A stretch of 62,741 bases of DNA, counting the filler, from Porpidia crustulata (lineage: Eukaryota), in assembly GCA_964255105.1 (NCBI GenBank). It is 4 parts of 4 records of this genome, joined end to end, with 100 filler letters (N's around TTAATTAATTAA, not from the genome) between each part and the next. Parts side by side here need not be neighbours in the genome. Positions count along the whole stretch, not along the records: positions 47,173 to 62,741 come from CAXUWE010000295.1; 3 more parts are not named here. One strand, 5' to 3'. The notes under the pieces are model-generated. The model was not told the DNA's origin. It worked only from the letters and a program-made list of their open reading frames with translations, and ran no database searches. Of this stretch, positions 4,295-61,319 are shown piece by piece. Positions within the stretch are counted from its first letter, which is position 1, and each line of letters begins with the position of its first letter. The position numbers were made by a program, and so were the translations under genes.

Positions 4295-4541
4295 TCATAT
4301 ACTATTATGTGCAAAACTGTACGATATCGATTTTCTTTCCTCGTGCGCTCTTCCAAGCGTTACACTTTTTTTTCGAGACTTTAACAACTTAAGTGTTTCT
4401 TCAGATATTTGATTTTATTCTAGATTCCTAAACTTGAATTACGTTTTTGCATACAATGACAGATGCTGCAACCTCGAATTTGCTTTCACCTGAGCATCAC
4501 AATAATACTGATCAGTTAACACATCGCCCAGAAGCTGACAT

Positions 4542-5669
4542 ATGAGCAGTAAGCTTCAACTTAAAACTGATCTGCCCCTAAGGCTACACCGGGCAATGTC
4601 TTGTTCAGCATGTGCCAGCTTCTCCCTACGAGGTTTCATGATGGATTTTGTCAACGTTGAGCTTCGGTTTAATCCATCTATTCGCTTTACGAAGGAATTT
4701 GCAGTACTTAGACGTCCATCGCACAATGCCTCCATCGCGCGTGGGCGCGCATTACCTCAAGATAGCACGGATCAAATCAGCACATACAACACAACTCGGA
4801 CAGGAATAGTTGATACGCCCTTTTCGCCTAGAAAATCTGTACACTCAGCGTGTATAAAGTTGCAAACAGTGGCATGTGGTGGAAATTCATCCGAATCTCG
4901 TAGAGCACCTCTCGCCCTAATAAAGCACCCGTGCGCCGTGCGTAGCCTCTACAGATCGAACTCCAGGATTCGCAGCATAACCACTGCGTCAAGGTCTGCC
5001 TCTGATCTTATACCGAACGACCATCTAGCTGTGCCTGGCGCAAATCAAGTTCCATCAGCAGACTTCATGGAGATTCATGGGAAGCGTGAGGGGAAGCGGG
5101 ATACTACTTCGATTACTGCTACATCCTGGAAGAACGCCGAGTTTCCTGGCAAAGAGCGTTCAAATCTTCCAGTGAATACTAAGCCTTGCGTTACAAAGGA
5201 ATACCGTCAGCGCAAACCTTGGCAGGTTCAGAAAAGTGCGTTGCAGTCGAAATTCGGTCCTACCGGTTGGTCTCCTCGAAAGCGCCTTTCGCCTGACGCT
5301 CTTGAGGGCATTCGCGCCCTCAATGCAAAGTACCCTAAGAAATACACCACGCCAGTGCTGGCGGATCAATTCCAGGTCTCGCCAGAAGCGGTACGAAGGA
5401 TATTGAAAAGCAAGTGGAAAGCCAATGAGGAAGAGGAGCTGGAGCGGCGCCAGCGCTGGGATAAGCGAGGTGCAGCTATATGGAGTAGTATGGTGGAGAT
5501 AGGCATCAAACCCCCTAAAAAGTGGAAGGATATGGGAATTGGTAAGGGTCGGAATCGTCGAGCAGGATGGGCAGGAGAGTTGAGAGCTAGTATGTGGGAC
5601 AGTGGTGATGCGTCGCACGGTGGGCATGAAGCCGGCTCGGGTGCATCGCTGTCAGATAGGATTCTTTAG
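4542..5669 (+). CDS. RRG9: Mitochondrial Neugrin-domain protein (required for respiratory growth 9)
   Basis: Motifs WQVQKSALQSKFG..GWSPRKRLSPDALEGIRAL and TTPVLADQFQVSPEAVRRILKSKW are typical of Rrg9/neugrin. The start may instead be the ATG at 4596. Confidence 0.85.
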   Translation: MSSKLQLKTDLPLRLHRAMSCSACASFSLRGFMMDFVNVELRFNPSIRFTKEFAVLRRPSHNASIARGRALPQDSTDQISTYNTTRTGIVDTPFSPRKSVHSACIKLQTVACGGNSSESRRAPLALIKHPCAVRSLYRSNSRIRSITTASRSASDLIPNDHLAVPGANQVPSADFMEIHGKREGKRDTTSITATSWKNAEFPGKERSNLPVNTKPCVTKEYRQRKPWQVQKSALQSKFGPTGWSPRKRLSPDALEGIRALNAKYPKKYTTPVLADQFQVSPEAVRRILKSKWKANEEEELERRQRWDKRGAAIWSSMVEIGIKPPKKWKDMGIGKGRNRRAGWAGELRASMWDSGDASHGGHEAGSGASLSDRIL

Positions 5670-15639: not shown

Positions 15640-15739
15640 NNNNNNNNNNNNNNNNNNNNNNNNNNNNNNNNNNNNNNNNNNNNTTAATTAATTAANNNNN
15701 NNNNNNNNNNNNNNNNNNNNNNNNNNNNNNNNNNNNNNN
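15640..15739. other. Artificial contig spacer (N44-TTAATTAATTAA-N44)
   Basis: 100-bp N block with a six-frame stop linker. Confidence 0.98.
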
Positions 15740-18343: not shown

Positions 18344-19639
18344 TGTTGATTGGATTATGAGGATCTTGCAAGTGATGCTTCTGTGACGAAAATGGCATCT
18401 GGAGCAACGGAGACTCTTAGATAACTTGGCACAAAGCGATGCAGATAAAGGGTTCGAAAGATTGATGTTTCATATGCCATGTAGAATCATCCATATCATT
18501 CCACCTTCTTTCAGAAATCTCAAAATCCATGGGCAAGGATTCTATCCGTCACTCAACCAAGACACAAGGAGAACCTCATAGTCGTAACCGTTGTAAGACT
18601 CAGAACCGTTACAAAACCTGCAGTTTGAGCTCCTTTGTTACAAACAAAGGCATGCTTATTTCCAGAATTGTAATTGACCAGCATATGCAGGCAGGAAAGA
18701 AGCAGATTCAAACACAATAAAGTTTAGGTGCTTAGTATGCTTGGTTTGGAAATCCGAAGTAAAGCCCATTGTTATCGGCCATCTCCTTAGCTAACCTTAC
18801 CAAACCTCACAGCTTGAACACTCGATACAATGATAGTCCAGCAATGCATCATTCTCATCTCTTCCTCGCACATCGAGCCTAATGCATCGCTGTATGTTCA
18901 ATACTTGAACTCCGTACAGCCCGGCCTGAGACAAATGAGATATGAAGAGTTTTGCCTCTCAAACCCAGGGTCGTCAGGGTTGTCGGATTGTAGCTTCGAA
19001 GCTTCATAAAGCAAAGCAGGATCCCGCTCCCTTGTAGAAAGTACTAGGGATGAAAAGAGACCGGGAAGTAGGTGGAATCCAGGAGTTGTTTGCGTTGATC
19101 TCGCTCGCCACCGAGAACCTACGGAGGCGGCGAATAAAGAGGCCGTTTCCTGTAGCCCATATTATTGTACCATACAGTGTGCTAGGAACAAAGTATATCA
19201 CGCTCGATAATATTTGTTAAGGACCCTTGTCCTGCGTGTATGTTTGACAGTGATGTTCCGCGGAGGTAAAGCGAGATCCCGAGCAATCACAGTCGATACT
19301 CCAAATAAGACAACCACTCAAGATGCTCATAAGAAGTTTGTTGTTTTACCGAGAAGATTAGTATGTTCTACCGGTCATTGTGTTGGCCTAGGGGGCTCGT
19401 CGTCATTGATTGGCACATATTTGCGGCCGCCCCTTTCTTAATGACCTACTCGTCACTATAGCCTTTCATCGAAATCATCGTGACAGCTGATCACATACTT
19501 ACTTACAATCTGAGAGACTGGTCAAGCATAAAATCTTGCAAGGTACGCACTTACCAAGCGAGCCATGTCTTGGGACAACTTGCGTTTGATCAACGGGAAA
19601 TTTCATGTTCAGTCCCAACCATCGCAAAGCGCCATCAAT

Positions 19640-20347
19640 ATGGATCCGGTGCTACCAAATGAGGTTCCGGAATCTATGCAAGTCTCGGAACAGGCACCAG
19701 AGTTTTACTGGACTTCTTATGGGTCGACTCTCACAGACGTGGAAAGTTACAGATACTGGGCCCGCAGCATGAAATTAGATCTCAAAAGGCTCAAGATGGA
19801 TCACTTCATCGATAAAGATTTTGCCCTCTATGGAGACCCGCAGTCCAGGGATTACAGCCCCGAGAAAGAATTCGAAGCGAGAGCAATCCTTACCAGCAGA
19901 TTAGGTGAGCAAGCGTTCGATCATATTTACGGCCTGGAGAACTTACAGACGATATGGACCAAGTTGGAAGAGAAATATCTAGAGATGGGCTGGGTGGCGG
20001 AGTCCCGTCTGATTTCGGACTTGGTGAGCATCAAATACCATGCGTGCAATGATGTAGAGGATTATATTTTCCAGTTTCGGAAAACGCTGCGGAAGCACTA
20101 TCCCATTGATCGGAGGATTCATGAAAATATACTTATTTACCTAGTGCTTGCGGGTTTAGATATGGAAATTGCGGAGGTGATCTGGGCGAATCTAGGGAAT
20201 CGTCAACATGGAAGCGAGCCTCCTCGGTTTGATGCGGTTGTCGAGCGATTACTACATCAAAAGCTAGACGAGGTAGAGGAAAAGGATCTTGATCTATCGA
20301 CTAGGTCGAACAGGAATAGCATTTCTGGTAGACAACAGATTGTATGA
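19640..20347 (+). CDS. Solitary Ty1/copia-type Gag (UBN2-like) ORF
   Basis: ARAILTSRLGEQAFDHIYGLENLQTIWTKLEEKY...LISDLVSIKY...VEDYIFQFR...ILIYLVLAGL matches the copia gag helical pattern. The ORF is open from 19565; the likely start is 19640. Confidence 0.75.
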   Translation: MDPVLPNEVPESMQVSEQAPEFYWTSYGSTLTDVESYRYWARSMKLDLKRLKMDHFIDKDFALYGDPQSRDYSPEKEFEARAILTSRLGEQAFDHIYGLENLQTIWTKLEEKYLEMGWVAESRLISDLVSIKYHACNDVEDYIFQFRKTLRKHYPIDRRIHENILIYLVLAGLDMEIAEVIWANLGNRQHGSEPPRFDAVVERLLHQKLDEVEEKDLDLSTRSNRNSISGRQQIV

Positions 20348-31361: not shown

Positions 31362-31461
31362 NNNNNNNNNNNNNNNNNNNNNNNNNNNNNNNNNNNNNNN
31401 NNNNNTTAATTAATTAANNNNNNNNNNNNNNNNNNNNNNNNNNNNNNNNNNNNNNNNNNNN
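31362..31461. other. Artificial contig spacer
   Basis: N44-TTAATTAATTAA-N44. Confidence 0.98.
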
Positions 31462-47072: not shown

Positions 47073-47172
47073 NNNNNNNNNNNNNNNNNNNNNNNNNNNN
47101 NNNNNNNNNNNNNNNNTTAATTAATTAANNNNNNNNNNNNNNNNNNNNNNNNNNNNNNNNNNNNNNNNNNNN
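47073..47172. other. Artificial contig spacer
   Basis: N44-TTAATTAATTAA-N44. Confidence 0.98.
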
Positions 47173-55061: not shown

Positions 55062-56082
55062 CGCGGTTTGCGTAGCCTGAGCGAGTTTTGGACAAATGAA
55101 GTTATTAGGAATTTGACACAGATATTATCGAAATCAGGAAGTCGTAGAAAAGAGGGAGTCTGATATAGCGTTGGGGCATAAGCTGAAAGCAGTGTAGAAA
55201 CTAGTGAAGAATCCGAGGTTTTGGTTTGTGTGCACCGCCGTACCGCAGTCAGAAAATGTGTCAGGCAGCAAGTCAGGTCATCTAACAACAAAGGATAGCG
55301 CACGCGGGCCTTATAGCAATTATTATACTCCGACTATCGGACAGCAAAGCAGATGTAAAACGGCTTTCCATCTTGGGTAATCAGCCTTCACCGATGGTCA
55401 TTAAACCATGTGCAAACAGTCATGGCAGGCCATGGCTAATCAAGGCCATATAGTCGGTCCTCCATCCTCCGTCGCTATCCTATCATTCCATCGTCGGTGT
55501 GCCTAGTTAAGAAACTTGGGGTCGGTTTTGGCACATGGATTACCGCATGTGCGTAAGTAGGGCCAGAAAATGGATGACACATCGCGAAGGATTGGGTAGG
55601 AGTTGATGCCGAGAACGAACGGGCTGAAGCGGTGAAGCAGCTCTACTAGACCGCCTTGCCTTCCATTTGCTTTACTTTGATTAGCAGACTTGAGTCCTAA
55701 GTGAGCGTTCCCGAGGCGAGATAGGACGCGCGAAGTACCATGTGAGAAACGATCAGCTTCGGCGAGTTCTTAATGATCGTCCCAATGCTAACAATCGGGA
55801 ACGTTGGAGGGTATGTGGGGCATGGGGGGTGTTCGGAGTGTTCCCCGACGGACTGATGGAATAGGTACTTTAAGCCGTCATCAGTGACGGGGCGATCCTC
55901 GGGGTATTGTAATGGACAAGAGAAGTCTCACAGTCTCGCCTTGGATTCCTTAGTACGGTGATTGATCGTCGTTGGCGGAATTAGAATATATTATTATTAT
56001 TATGATTGCCATCTTGGAGCACGCGAGCCATCCACCTGCAAGGATGACGGGAGGGTACGGTCCGATTGGCGTTCTCGATAAG

Positions 56083-56232
56083 GTGTGGTGGTAAGTGTCT
56101 CGTACTTTAAGGTCAGCCCCAGAGTTTGGTGGGCAGGAGGGGGCAAAGCTGGGGTGCTGGGGAAGAAGGAGGCGGCGGTGAGATGGAGTGGTAAGCCTTA
56201 TGTCCTGGATTAGAAATTAATAATGAAGCATT
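56083..56232 (+). repeat. Direct repeat, copy 1 (partner at 58488-58657)
   Basis: Shared blocks TCTCGTACT, CAGCCCCAGAGTTT, GGGGCAAAGCTGGGG, AAGGAGGCGGCGGTGAGA, TAAGCCTTATGTCCT, ATTAGAAATTAA. Confidence 0.9.
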
Positions 56233-56740
56233 GTTAATCATTATAATCGTGATGTATGAGTTGATCCGGAGTCTTCTGCCTCAGTCGGGCCGGCTGTGTG
56301 CTAGATCTACGCTTCAAGTTTTTCTCTGAATATGTCTTTGAAATTGATTGCCGCGATGTCATGAGTAATGTGAGTAACAAGAAAAGCTCACTGACAGATA
56401 GAACGTTGTCTAGAAAAACAGAGCAGAATAGAACTTGAGTGTATAACGGACAGAACAGTAGAAGAAGTGTGCAATTCCGCAACTTGCGCAATCCCGCATC
56501 TATCTGATTTATACTCGTAACTTTACTCAAGGAGACAGAATCTTGGACTTCTAATGCGATTCATCAATTACTTCAAGTGAGTAAAGTATGAACAATTATC
56601 GTCTCAACACAACACTTAAAATCATACTTCATTCGAGATTTCATTGAACATCTCAACTCATTGTTAATATCTCTTCAGTCTTCGTCAAAGCTTCACTTTA
56701 TCGTTACGCGTCTTATATATCTGATACACTCTGAACATTC

Positions 56741-58520
56741 ATGTCTTCTAAACTCTTCTACTGTTTGTAAATGTTAGATGTCTATCTAAGTTTATTCTTT
56801 TCAAGTTGTTGATCACACAACGTCTGTTAGGATTAAACATCACCCGATATATCTGAGATAGTAGCACATGGGCTAGATCTGACGACTTAGTATTTCGTCT
56901 TTTGATGATGCAACTCAGAGGAACGTGATCTCTGAGCGCATCTCAACTTTCTAATTCGGATACACATGTGCCTGCGGGACCGGTCGTAGCAACATCGAAG
57001 TCAAGATAACAAGATCGAGTGAGTTGAGTCTGTCATTGTGTTATCTAAACCCGACTAATTTCTTCAAAGAGAATCTCAACAAGTACGCCTATCGCAATGT
57101 CAATCGACTGCGCATCTATCTAGATCTACAAAGTGTTGAAGACTTAAGAGACTGAATGAAAAGCAATCTTTGGACTCCGCACTTCAACGAACTTTACGTC
57201 GATGTAATCCAATCAGCTTAGACGCAAGCAGATGCTAGCGATGAGATCAGAGCACGTGGATCAGATAGAACGCTCGTTGAAACACAGCTTTACAGTGAAG
57301 AGAAAGCAGGCAAGAGGAAGTACTCTCGATCAAAGCCTGATAAAAGAGGATGGTCCAGTCTGGATCACTATGCTCGGTTCATGTGGGCTGTAAAAGATGA
57401 AAATGTGAACGATAAAGATGGTATCTTTTTTGAGCGACGTCTGGAAGAGGCCGCAATCCATGAGCGCATTTGGATGGTCTACCAACGAAGTTCCCATCTC
57501 CAAATCCAAATCTAAAGCACCAGGCGAGCGGCAATCTCAACGTCTCAAGGAGAAGGGAAAGCAGGGCCAACCGGCTCAGGGAACACCCTTGCAGCAGCAA
57601 GAAAGCAACCAATCGTCATCGACATCTTTCCAGTCGCTTCAAGAGATGAGAATTATCTCAACACAGACTCTGACGACAGTCTTCTGATCCGAATGTCATA
57701 TCGAAAGCCAAACTTTTCGTATTCATTAACGACGACATTGACAACGACAATGCAAATGACAACAATACAGAAATTTGCGATGACAGTAATGAGATTGACC
57801 TTACTACGTTGAATTCGGAAACACGCATGTTCAAGGAGCGGATCTCTCGATCGTTTGATCTCAAGAATAGATGATGGGTTTGGACCAGAGTATCATCAAG
57901 TAACTCCGCAAAGATGCCGATGATCAGAGTCACATTGCAGAGATTTGTCGATGTCATCTACGACACTCACGACATCATGACTGTCAGGTCTTTAGCCTGA
58001 ATGACTGAAATCAATGCTGTAATGAATGAGTCACAAATATTCCTGATCACTCCGTTCAAAGCAACCACAGAACGTTTTGAACGTATTCAAGCTTTACTTG
58101 ATAATCAGTCCTTTCAGCGAGATGGATCATTTGGGAGCTTGTCAACGATTGAACATCATGACTGTCGACCCTTCAGCCTGGATAACCCAACTCAATACCG
58201 TAACGAATGAACCACAAAAATACCCCCGACCACTCCATCCAAAGTAACCACAGAACGGTTCGAACGTATTCAAGCTTTACTTGGCAATCAGCCCTTTCGA
58301 CGAGAGGAATCATTTGGGAGCTTGTTAATCGCGATTGAATATCATTAATCCTCACAAGCCTCATCTTCAAACAATGCCACGCTCACGACGTGGCAGTCAG
58401 TCGCTATCGATGCCCATTCAGCAGTTCCAGGCTGATGGGTGGCCGCGTGGGTGCGTGCTTGCTGATGCTATGGGACTAGGTAGGACTGTGGTGGTGGTAG
58501 GTATCTATCTCGTACTCGAT
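56741..58520 (+). pseudogene. Hypermutated SNF2-family ATPase pseudogene (long N-terminus to motif I)
   Basis: Protein-like frame across an intron (57019-57069) with in-frame stops (TGA 57153, TAG 57219). Q-motif-like WQSVAIDA (~58391) and Walker-A GCVLADAMGLGRT (58449-58487). Confidence 0.7.
57972..58345 (+). repeat. Diverged ~181-bp tandem duplication within the pseudogene
   Basis: Units start ACATCATGACTGTC at 57972 and 58153; both contain GAACGTATTCAAGCTTTACTTG and ATCATTTGGGAGCTTGT. Confidence 0.9.
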
Positions 58521-58657
58521 GGAGTCAGCAGGGGGCTGTGGAGGGGTCGACAGCCCCAGAGTTTCGTGGCAGAGGAGGGGCAAAGCTGGGGAAGGAGGCG
58601 GCGGTGAGACAGAGTGATAAGCCTTATGTCCTACATTAGAAATTAAAGAAAGCACTT
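58488..58657 (+). repeat. Direct repeat, copy 2 (partner at 56083-56232)
   Basis: Same blocks as copy 1, about 2.43 kb downstream. Confidence 0.9.
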
Positions 58658-59352
58658 TCACTAATTACTGATGAATAAACATCATAATAATTATTGGAGC
58701 GTTTAATGAGTGTTGTGTCTGACAGTACATATATCAGGCCACTGTTGCGATGCTATGTTTCTCCAACTTTCTTGGCGTCTTTGTTGCGCATTACATACTA
58801 CACACCGCTGATCGCTGTGAGAATCAGAATGATATGCGATCCGAATTCGCACATGCCAAAATTCTGGCCTCACATCTCAAGTAGATATGTCTCACAGGCT
58901 CCGGGCCGAATCTGGGAGTCGTACATATCTACCTACCTAGATATGATTCTCGGCTCCAAGCGCTCCAGAAGCTTCCATTACTGTGACACCCAACGTGCCG
59001 CCATCCGCATGCGTTCGAGGAGGATCAAGTGTGCCGTCAGCAATAAAATCCTCCTTGAAACACGGAGATTACTTTGGAGTCAGTAGCGTGTGAGCTCATC
59101 GTGTCGGTTTGCTGAATTCGAAGAGTATTTGATCCTGATGCAAGCCGAGACATCCGTATTAGTTATGTTCGGAATAGTCACATTTGCGTCATCACTCCGT
59201 CCATGAGAAGTGGTGCATAATCTAAATCTCTAACTGTTTCGCTCAGCGAATCCTCCGCCACCTTCCGGCCTCCGGGGGGGTCCGCTGAGCTCCGGATCGT
59301 GATCGTCTCTTTTGTGTCATAATAGCGTATCGCGAAGTTTGTACGGAGGATA

Positions 59353-61319
59353 CTACATCCCTTGAGACTCCAAAGGAGTGGCCGATACTGCTGATGCTAT
59401 GGTAGGCGGTATTGCAGCCGCCGTGGTAGCAGACTCACCAGCAGAGCTAGCATCGGCTGACTTCTCTGGAATGGGGTCTACAGCAGGACTAGCCACAGCA
59501 GCTCCCAGATCAGAAGAATTCGCTGTTGTTGCCAACGGCTTGGGTGCGGATGGGGTTGGGAAAGGGGCCGCTCCTCGAGCCAGCCCGCCTCCTCTCCTCA
59601 TGGATCCTCCTCTCCCGCCCCTGGCAACCATTGGTGCCCCACCGCCACGATTCATAGGCGGTCCGCCTCCACGAGTGTTCATCATGGGACTTCCTCCCCT
59701 CATATTCCTTGTTTGAAGCGTAGTCCCCGTCTTACGCTCCAAGACCACCACTTGTCCTTGAGCGACTTTGACTGGGCTTGCCTTGATAGCATTCTGGAGA
59801 CCTTGCGGTTCCATAAACTCAACATATGCGAAGCCTTTCTTTTTATCAATCTCAACCTTCTTGACCATACCAAAGCTGGCAAAGGCTTCTTCTAGCAAAG
59901 GTTCAGTAATCCCTTGAGAAGGGTTGGCGTGTTTCAGGAAAGCTTGCGTCGCAGTCGGTGTCGCTAGTATGGCTTTGCTGGGAGGCGAGCCAAGATTCGA
60001 GGCAGTACTGTCAATAGCAGAAGCTGGCAAAGCCTTCGAAGCGGCTCGTACCGCGGACAGTGCCGTCAGGGCTCTGGCATGTGGTCTGTTTTGGCTGGAC
60101 GTAGTAGTAATGGATGGTGCAGGAGATTTGTCACTCGAGGTAGCTACGATCCCGGCTGCAGGCTCATTTGAAGTCTGGGGGGGGTCTTGCTTGACTGTTG
60201 CTGGCACATTATTTACTGGCGAACGTCCAGAGGTCCCAGGTAATCCGCGTCTCCCTCCTCTTCCCCCGGGGTTGATCCCAATCCCCAGATCTCGTTGCAG
60301 AATCCTAGCAGCTGCACTGGCACTCCCCCTCTCTCGTCTCTTTTCGGCTAGGGGTGAAGGACTGGCGTTTGATTGTGGTGTAATTTCTGGTGGAGTTGCA
60401 GATGATGTTGCTGCCACTGCCTTCTTGCTACTGCTGACCGCCTGTTTATTCAATACGCGGACCGCATCTCGAGCAGCCTTTTCGACTTTGATAGCTTGGG
60501 GGCTCCGGTTATCTGGAGGTGGGGCACCAGCATTGATAACCTTTGTAGAAGACTTCTTCTCTGCAACAGGGCCTTGCTTGCCATCCTTAGGGTCTTGCCG
60601 ATTTTGCTTTGCACCTTTCGCAGGACTTGTGGTCTCTTTACTTTTGTTCGCTTTCTTGTCCCGTAAGAACTGGATTAGAGGTGTGACAGTGATTTTCTCT
60701 TTCGCTTTGTTGCTGCCATCGTTCTCCTGATCGACCGTCACAGGCTTCGAGATAGGGTTGGTAAGACTCTCTAGAAAATCGATGAACTCTGGATCTTGAT
60801 CGATTGTACCTTGACGAAGATCTTTGCGTATCCTGCTATGTGGAATCCGTCCGTAAGGTGCAAATTCCACCGAAGCCGGACCTAATAATGCTGGGTCTTT
60901 CGTAGAGCTCTTGGCATCAGTGAATGTGGTGCTGTTGACTTTCTCAGAGAGTTGTCCTAGAAATTCTTGCTTTGTGAGGTGAAGGTACGCGCGACTGGGT
61001 CTCGATGGCTTTGCAGGACTATTTCAGTATAGTGAGAAATGGGGTTTGAAGCACAAAGCTCAAGAGGCACCTACTCTTTGGACACCTTACCGGGCTTGTA
61101 GATGGCCCAGTCAACCCTACCACCGTGAACCTTCCATTCGTCACCTAACGCTATATCTAACTCTGCTTGAGTGAGACCGGGTGGCAGTCTTCTGACAATG
61201 ACCTTGAGTCTCGGTGTAGCAGCTCGTGAAGACATGTTTACAGGTCCTCCTGCTCGTTTTTGTGTGGCGGAGATTGGAATAGACAAGACTCCGTTTGAAC
61301 GAGAAGTTGAAGCCATCAT
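59353..61319 (-). CDS. UPF3: Nonsense-mediated decay factor Upf3 with additional C-terminal RRM-like domain
   Basis: RLKVIVRRLPPGLT, KPGKVSK|..KPSRPSRAYL, VEFAPY, GTIDQDPEFIDFLESL. Second RRM: FGMVKKVEIDKKKGFAYVEF. Intron near 61021-61075. Confidence 0.92.

Follow-up and report, generated by a model that had tools for sequence, protein, structure and literature searches.

How can a stretch of fungal DNA be emptied of CC and GG dinucleotides while CA, TG, and CG persist? The question arises at a block on contig C295 of Porpidia crustulata, one of four unrelated contigs (C292 to C295) placed end to end in the 62,741-nucleotide stretch analyzed here (the window), with N spacers at positions 15640 to 15739, 31362 to 31461, and 47073 to 47172; as the contigs are unrelated, gene order across the spacers is without meaning. 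The assembly comprises 22.9 Mb in 2,447 contigs. Since its nearest named homologs are those of Lecanoromycetes (DPH1 at 83 to 85%; DIM-2 domain at 59 to 64%, with environmental proteins closer at 74 to 80%), the host is probably a lichen-type ascomycete. The features of the locus are collected in Table 1.

Table 1. Features of the CC/GG-poor locus on contig C295, in window coordinates
Feature	Position	Strand	Remarks
Left GC-rich direct repeat	56085..56290 (core 56114-56220)	+	CC/GG intact, 34 vs 30 expected; left block border
Whole CC/GG-poor block	56291..58150	.	ca. 1.9 kb; undepleted gap at 57301-57600
Patch core	56547..56829	.	283 nt without CC/GG; covers the dead gene's presumed 5' end and sequence upstream of it
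Degenerate, truncated SNF2-helicase-family gene	56741..58490	+	stops and frameshifts; start at 56741 tentative
Solo LTR, old family	56825..56991	+	TG...CA, 167 nt; at least 17 other copies; CC->TC and GG->GA changes absent from most sisters
Internal tandem duplication	57972..58345 (57972-58159 / 58153-58345)	+	80% identical; loss of first C of CC pairs in left copy
Right GC-rich direct repeat	58491..58700 (core 58551-58646)	+	81% identical to left repeat; CC/GG intact, 30 vs 26 expected

The first-pass annotation had reported, from inspection, that CC and GG are missing from the core while CA/TG and CG remain, and both counts and shuffles agree. The core (A83 C59 G32 T109; 32% GC) contains neither CC nor GG, with 24 CA, 15 TG, 8 CG, and 36 TC still present, while base shuffles gave a mean expectation of 15.6 CC plus GG and reached zero in 0 of 200,000 cases. 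The runners-up among CC/GG-free gaps across the window measure 114, 113, and 110 nt, and every one of them spans N runs. When a 734-kb genome sample was shuffled in 300-nt blocks, the longest CC/GG-free run was 100 to 215 nt in all 20 replicates, and the median CC plus GG count in AT-matched 283-nt windows (n = 37; 29 to 35% GC) was 10. Among mutation models simulated on 283-mers, the CpC model alone produced zero CC/GG (27 of 150 runs, against 0 of 150 for the four others), and it was also the only one to yield the TC gain and TA deficit of the core. A public-run contig showed zero letter differences from positions 56082 to 59500, which excludes an assembler error and nothing further, since that run may derive from the source sample itself.

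The flanks at about 56300 to 57250, likewise described as CC/GG-poor, proved to be so, with 27 CC plus GG observed against 78 expected at 56291 to 57300, and the depletion reaches further: it is absent from 57301 to 57600 (37 against 36) and returns at 57601 to 58150 (23 against 47). Relative to the direct repeats, the linker holds 128 CC/GG against 201 expected, the left flank 70 against 68, and the right flank 40 against 55, values that describe this block alone. The standard RIP indices are blind to the pattern, as had been anticipated, and are negative at the locus (TpA/ApT, 0.82; [CpA + TpG]/[ApC + GpT], 1.00; composite, -0.18).

The direction and context of the changes can be read from the solo LTR, which is bounded by a 5-bp target-site duplication (56820 to 56824 and 56992 to 56996, with one mismatch). 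Pairwise comparison was made among the 14 of 18 copies in which both ends were present; the other four, lacking a detectable end, were dropped. The window copy reads T where 13 sisters read C at 155 of 322 CpC positions (0.48), against 31/207 for CpA, 13/164 for CpG, and 28/167 for CpT, the non-CpC contexts thus having changed at 8 to 17%; the same tally, performed with each sister taken in turn, gave CpC values of 0.03 to 0.24. Considered pair by pair, with a near-identical sister dropped, the CpC bias of the window copy reached a Fisher P value of <0.05 in 11 of 12 comparisons, which share that copy and are not independent of one another. Two-C runs had become TC in 49 cases, CT in 9, and TT in 4, with 22 CC unchanged, which identifies the first C of the pair as the target, and the strands were affected about equally (78/153 and 61/150). 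UV and APOBEC3G patterns affect the opposite C of the pair, and a pattern of either type was rejected on these same counts.

The tandem duplication agrees independently with the LTR, with changes at 10 of 21 CpC positions and at 8 of 59 positions in other contexts (P = 0.004); its copies were mutated unequally. Sparing of CCG was considered in view of the patch counts (CCG 48 against CCH 105; P = 0.003) and of surviving proline codons, yet 18 of 45 CCG positions in the LTR had changed, and the effect is at most weak. The suggestion that patches flank every LTR was also rejected, the mean observed/expected ratio of the flanks being 0.96 to 1.05 across 17 sister LTRs, without depletion.

A further reporter is provided by a broken MFS transporter gene on contig C801, which was compared with a 42%-identical paralog and displays Gly-to-Asp/Glu and Trp-to-TGA replacements. 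At 21 positions facing a glycine of the paralog, nine codons are GAN, none is AGN, and nine still encode glycine, seven of the latter lying 3' of the patch; at seven positions facing tryptophan, two are TGA and none is TAG, the codon which CpA RIP would give. Together, the LTR, the tandem duplication, and the MFS gene support the earlier attribution of the pattern to CpC-directed C-to-T change rather than to CpA RIP: alignment establishes that CpC became TpC at the first C, on both strands, at this locus and one other.

The degenerate gene covering much of the block ends just past a motif-I-like stretch near 58446 to 58490. Two paralogs, L077 and L078, both with stops, match it at 28 to 29% identity, and one of the two continues into SNF2 (PF00176) and Helicase_C (PF00271) domains, which are carried by the paralog of L139 (contig C121). 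The degenerate reading frame had no relatives among the longer proteins of the protein collection and no convincing match in Pfam; no metagenome locus was found for the middle part of the SNF2 paralog, and an atlas search returned only unnamed and SNF2-fragment clusters, with a low recognition value. Two codon-level claims of the first-pass annotation stand in part. The TGA at 57153 is present and fits a CpC change, but the aligned residue of the paralog is phenylalanine, which leaves an origin from TGG unproven; similarly, the ATG at 56741 shares its frame with the degenerate reading frame that follows once the LTR is discounted, but no paralog aligns there to support the derivation of ATG TCT TCT AAA from ATG CCT CCT AAA.

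In all three SNF2 paralogs, a stop occupies one and the same position of the alignment (57219 to 57221 in the window, ca. 1672 in L077, and ca. 1760 on the minus strand of L078) in spite of just 28 to 29% identity to the window copy, which may reflect shared descent, readthrough, or chance. The near-complete paralog on L139 has its coding region flanked on either side by CC-poor sequence (1 to 1200 and 4501 to 4800), an arrangement suggestive of a mobile unit whose ends have been mutated. Adjoining the third SNF2 paralog is a degenerate, CpG-poor short-unit array with long imperfect inverted and direct repeats (L088, 7950 to 9200; L078, 2230 to 3400).

The wider occurrence of the signature was assessed in the 734-kb sample, which represents ca. 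3% of the assembly and is non-random. Among its 7,137 windows, significant deficits (P < 0.001) were found for CC/GG in 25, CA/TG in 1, CG in 4, and CT/AG in 2, and no classical RIP was observed in these windows. A genome-wide system, or a genome-wide reach of the CpC process, is not shown by this sample. Sixteen segments had a CC/GG observed/expected ratio of <0.5, of which seven were discounted because they lay for the most part in open frames or were of low complexity; the nine retained comprise two that are this block, three on contigs picked via earlier matches, and four that were unselected. CTN ratios in the patches range from 0.81 to 1.03. CpC-scarred patches of dead DNA occur in at least three places of the genome, and at two of these loci they are established by alignment. 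A low-complexity pyrimidine-then-purine tract near a contig end (L136, 8380 to 8900), with a 291-nt CC/GG-free run, was excluded from the counts.

The proposition that close relatives have the same patches was not borne out. Of 20 metagenome DIM-2 loci, three weak matches were left out, and the only CC-poor sequence among the 17 used consisted of one normal coding exon, from a close relative, and one borderline window (L145). A more distant fungus, whose DIM-2 is 62% identical, exhibits textbook CpA RIP (L159, 1 to 4900), with CA observed/expected ratios of 0.0 to 0.4 and CC mostly above 1; this profile, being the opposite of that of the block, serves as a positive control for CpA RIP.

The first-pass annotation had further proposed that the system is repeat targeted. 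While the preference for CpC holds, targeting to repeats is not shown: no second copy of the mutated body was detected in the same genome for any of the three patches tested, although the assembly is fragmented and partners may be lost or unassembled. No duplicate of the patch body was present at 80% likeness in the contigs of one public run, and next to none of its sequence words occurred in two other public runs; no RNA run was listed as a match. Repeat-family alignments were free of a CpC excess, the pooled CpC value of 140 such alignments being 0.25, against 0.20 to 0.27 in other contexts. In a 1.4-kb, 93%-identical pair of DDE_1 (Tc1/pogo-type) transposons (L056, 631 to 2046; L060, 1 to 1418), CpG was the most changed context (28/155) and CpC the least (11/164), and, on the pooled alignments together with this pair, a genome-wide CpC bias in repeats was rejected. 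The two-fold excess of CpG transitions in the pair (P = 0.0008) may point to a distinct process of CpG methylation.

The relative age of the mutagenesis is evident from a young LTR, with 23 other matches of which the near-full-length ones are 90 to 99% identical, that was cleanly inserted in a CC-poor patch. This copy holds 25 CC/GG against 21 expected and its flanks 3 against 22 and 5 against 13; the process is thus older than the young LTR family and patchy, and, taken together, it looks both old and patchy. A very young, GG/CC-rich end of a high-copy element (96 to 100% identical) was observed at L058, 1 to 55, and in ca. 35 other places, mostly contig ends, where the assembly breaks time and again; a Copia-type gag fragment (PF14223) at 19532 to 20347 of the window is of normal CC/GG content. 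In Cladonia rangiformis, short or recent DNA transposons are described as commonly escaping RIP (PMC12542154).

Inspection of the methyltransferase complement, which the first-pass annotation had recommended, identified three PF00145 loci in the genome. DIM-2 (BAH plus PF00145) has an open frame with catalytic motifs, and RID (L013) has an open frame of 679 amino acids in which FCGAGG, PPCQ, EQT, QRRSR, and GNAV are present. The third, a RID-like gene (L014, 550 to 2100, contig C851), carries in-frame stops, retains the catalytic PPCQ, and is not itself CC depleted. In a tree of 17 rows, motif-less rows having been left out, it falls with P0303 and P0304, both from environmental sources, in a separate clade on a long branch (support, 100/99); P0305 and P0309 likewise match it with a better score than they match the intact RID.

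In the light of these data, the block is probably the scar of a past RIP-type, methyltransferase-driven mutagenesis which targeted CpC in place of CpA. Stretches would have been marked by repeats, whether direct repeats nearby, transposons, or duplicate partners that have meanwhile disappeared or escaped assembly. Methylation of CpC by an enzyme of RID or DIM-2 type would have followed, with conversion of the methylated bases to T in a single round or several; since the latest bursts of transposons, the process has presumably been feeble or inactive. Counting against this reading are the single-copy bodies of all three patches, the unbiased repeats, the undepleted flanks of sister LTRs, the untouched left flank of the block, and the unequal tandem copies. 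As regards the enzyme, a RID-type protein, either the intact RID or the now-broken second one, appears a reasonable choice, and DIM-2 is a credible, if more tentative, candidate; the block, being single copy and situated between repeats, is best accounted for by the DIM-2-type branch, through which repeat-adjacent DNA is mutated. That the second RID-family clade (L014, P0303, and P0304) turned the target of RIP from CpA into CpC in a lineage of lichen-type fungi is distinctly unlikely. Were it so, the present broken state of L014 would account for the CpC scars of old dead DNA and for the unmutated state of recent transposons, and the case would represent a natural specificity switch with a built-in loss-of-function control.

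Ordinary causes, i.e., CpA RIP, context-free decay, AT richness, low complexity, or assembly error, might be suspected given the core GC content of just 32%, the setting aside of 7 of the 16 flagged segments, and the fact that the one patch of a close relative is a normal coding exon. For this locus they are refuted and hardly merit credence: AT content as sole cause falls short by shuffles, AT-matched windows, and simulations alike, none of which reached zero under such causes; the alignments supply both direction and context; true CpA RIP, as in L159, has the opposite profile; and the public-run contig is identical to the assembly. A cytidine deaminase, or unrepaired alkylation damage in silent chromatin, favoring C before C would dispense with a methyltransferase. 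Alkylation signatures prefer a C followed by a pyrimidine; even so, this explanation is improbable, as CpT is spared (28/167 in the LTR and the CTN ratios of the patches), a CpC-plus-CpT model failed in all 150 simulations, and the changes are restricted to patches.

The main rival is a vegetative DIM-2 mutator without homology sensing, in which methylation of heterochromatic dead DNA in mitotically growing cells would fall chiefly on CpC, the bases then decaying to T. The patches are single copy, graded, and affected on both strands, and the DIM-2 frame is open, in keeping with such a process; moreover, Dim2 of Zymoseptoria tritici is reported to raise C-to-T change at CA in mitosis and to methylate CC at 3 to 8% in transposable elements (PMC8016269). 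We nevertheless regard this as rather unlikely, since a continuous process should touch the young and middle-aged transposons, which are expected to be heterochromatic and are without CpC loss, and since the left edge of the block is a direct repeat. The ongoing C-to-T change in transposable elements that marks a mitotic mutator was, by the indirect evidence of the young LTR and the 93%-identical pair, not found.

The preferred reading, past CpC-directed mutagenesis of RIP type, can be set against the systems already described. With RID-dependent RIP (Neurospora crassa, Leptosphaeria maculans, Trichoderma reesei, and the lichen Endocarpon pusillum) it shares dense C:G-to-T:A change that favors a certain dinucleotide and affects both strands, the residence of the changes in dead or mobile DNA, and a RID gene. 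The affected copy displays a directional C:G-to-T:A excess, and the RID homolog has intact catalytic motifs. It differs in its CpC target, the lack of TpA gain, the negative indices, and the lack of a detectable duplicate of the mutated bodies: a CpA target with TpA gain was not found (CpA 31/207 against CpC 155/322; TpA/ApT, 0.82), nor was confinement to duplicated sequence of several hundred base pairs (no duplicate for three of three bodies in this fragmented assembly). With RIP-like action but neither of these two properties, the process is best described as a variant of RIP rather than a member. The order of contexts reported for N. crassa is CpA > CpT > CpG > CpC, with CpC least preferred in T. 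reesei also (PMC5496416).

DIM-2/DIM-5/HP1-dependent RIP of N. crassa is reported to mutate nonrepetitive DNA between or beside close GC-rich direct repeats while the repeats are spared, the flanks being affected as the linker is (bioRxiv 10.1101/2021.04.05.438447). The block resembles it in that its single-copy linker is mutated while the GC-rich direct repeats on either side are intact; unlike in that system, the left flank is untouched, and the repeats here are short (ca. 110 to 200 bp) and share just 81% identity. A CpT preference has, in addition, been described for DIM-2 of Neurospora (PMC13297926). The mitotic Dim2 mutator of Z. tritici is alike in linking C-to-T change in silent DNA to a methyltransferase and in that the mutated dinucleotide differs from the main methylated context, but it targets CpA and acts on transposable elements (PMC8016269), whereas here CpC is targeted and recent elements are spared.

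Fungi are known to differ in the dinucleotide that is targeted, as documented in a ten-genome survey of CpA, CpT (Botrytis, Sclerotinia, and Magnaporthe), and CpG (Tuber, Microbotryum, and rusts) signatures, tied to the DNA methyltransferase complement, whose main text contains no CpC term (PMC4352252). The lichen papers employ CpA indices, or GC content and RIP-affected regions, again without a CpC term in their main texts (PMC3897900, PMC12542154, and PMC13486527); in Monilinia, CpC-to-TpT change is mentioned, in the text available, solely as double mutations alongside CpA RIP (PMC8959702), and the available portions of PMC2621366, PMC5555474, PMC7862722, PMC13297926, PMC10246852, and PMC5602860 contain no CpC case. 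The literature searched yielded no CpC-dominant signature, although one might be contained in supplementary tables of k-mer or RIPCAL results. A CpC-directed version would contradict the generalization, drawn from a 2025 k-mer screen of 1,239 fungal genomes, that RIP-like defenses have a CpA preference in common (PMC12543289), and it would add to the earlier list of CpA, CpT, and CpG (PMC4352252). As such a version is invisible to TpA/ApT-based tools, genomes scored as RIP free may be misread, and the present locus offers a natural comparison for the question of whether RID or DIM-2 determines the context that is mutated, and via which residues.
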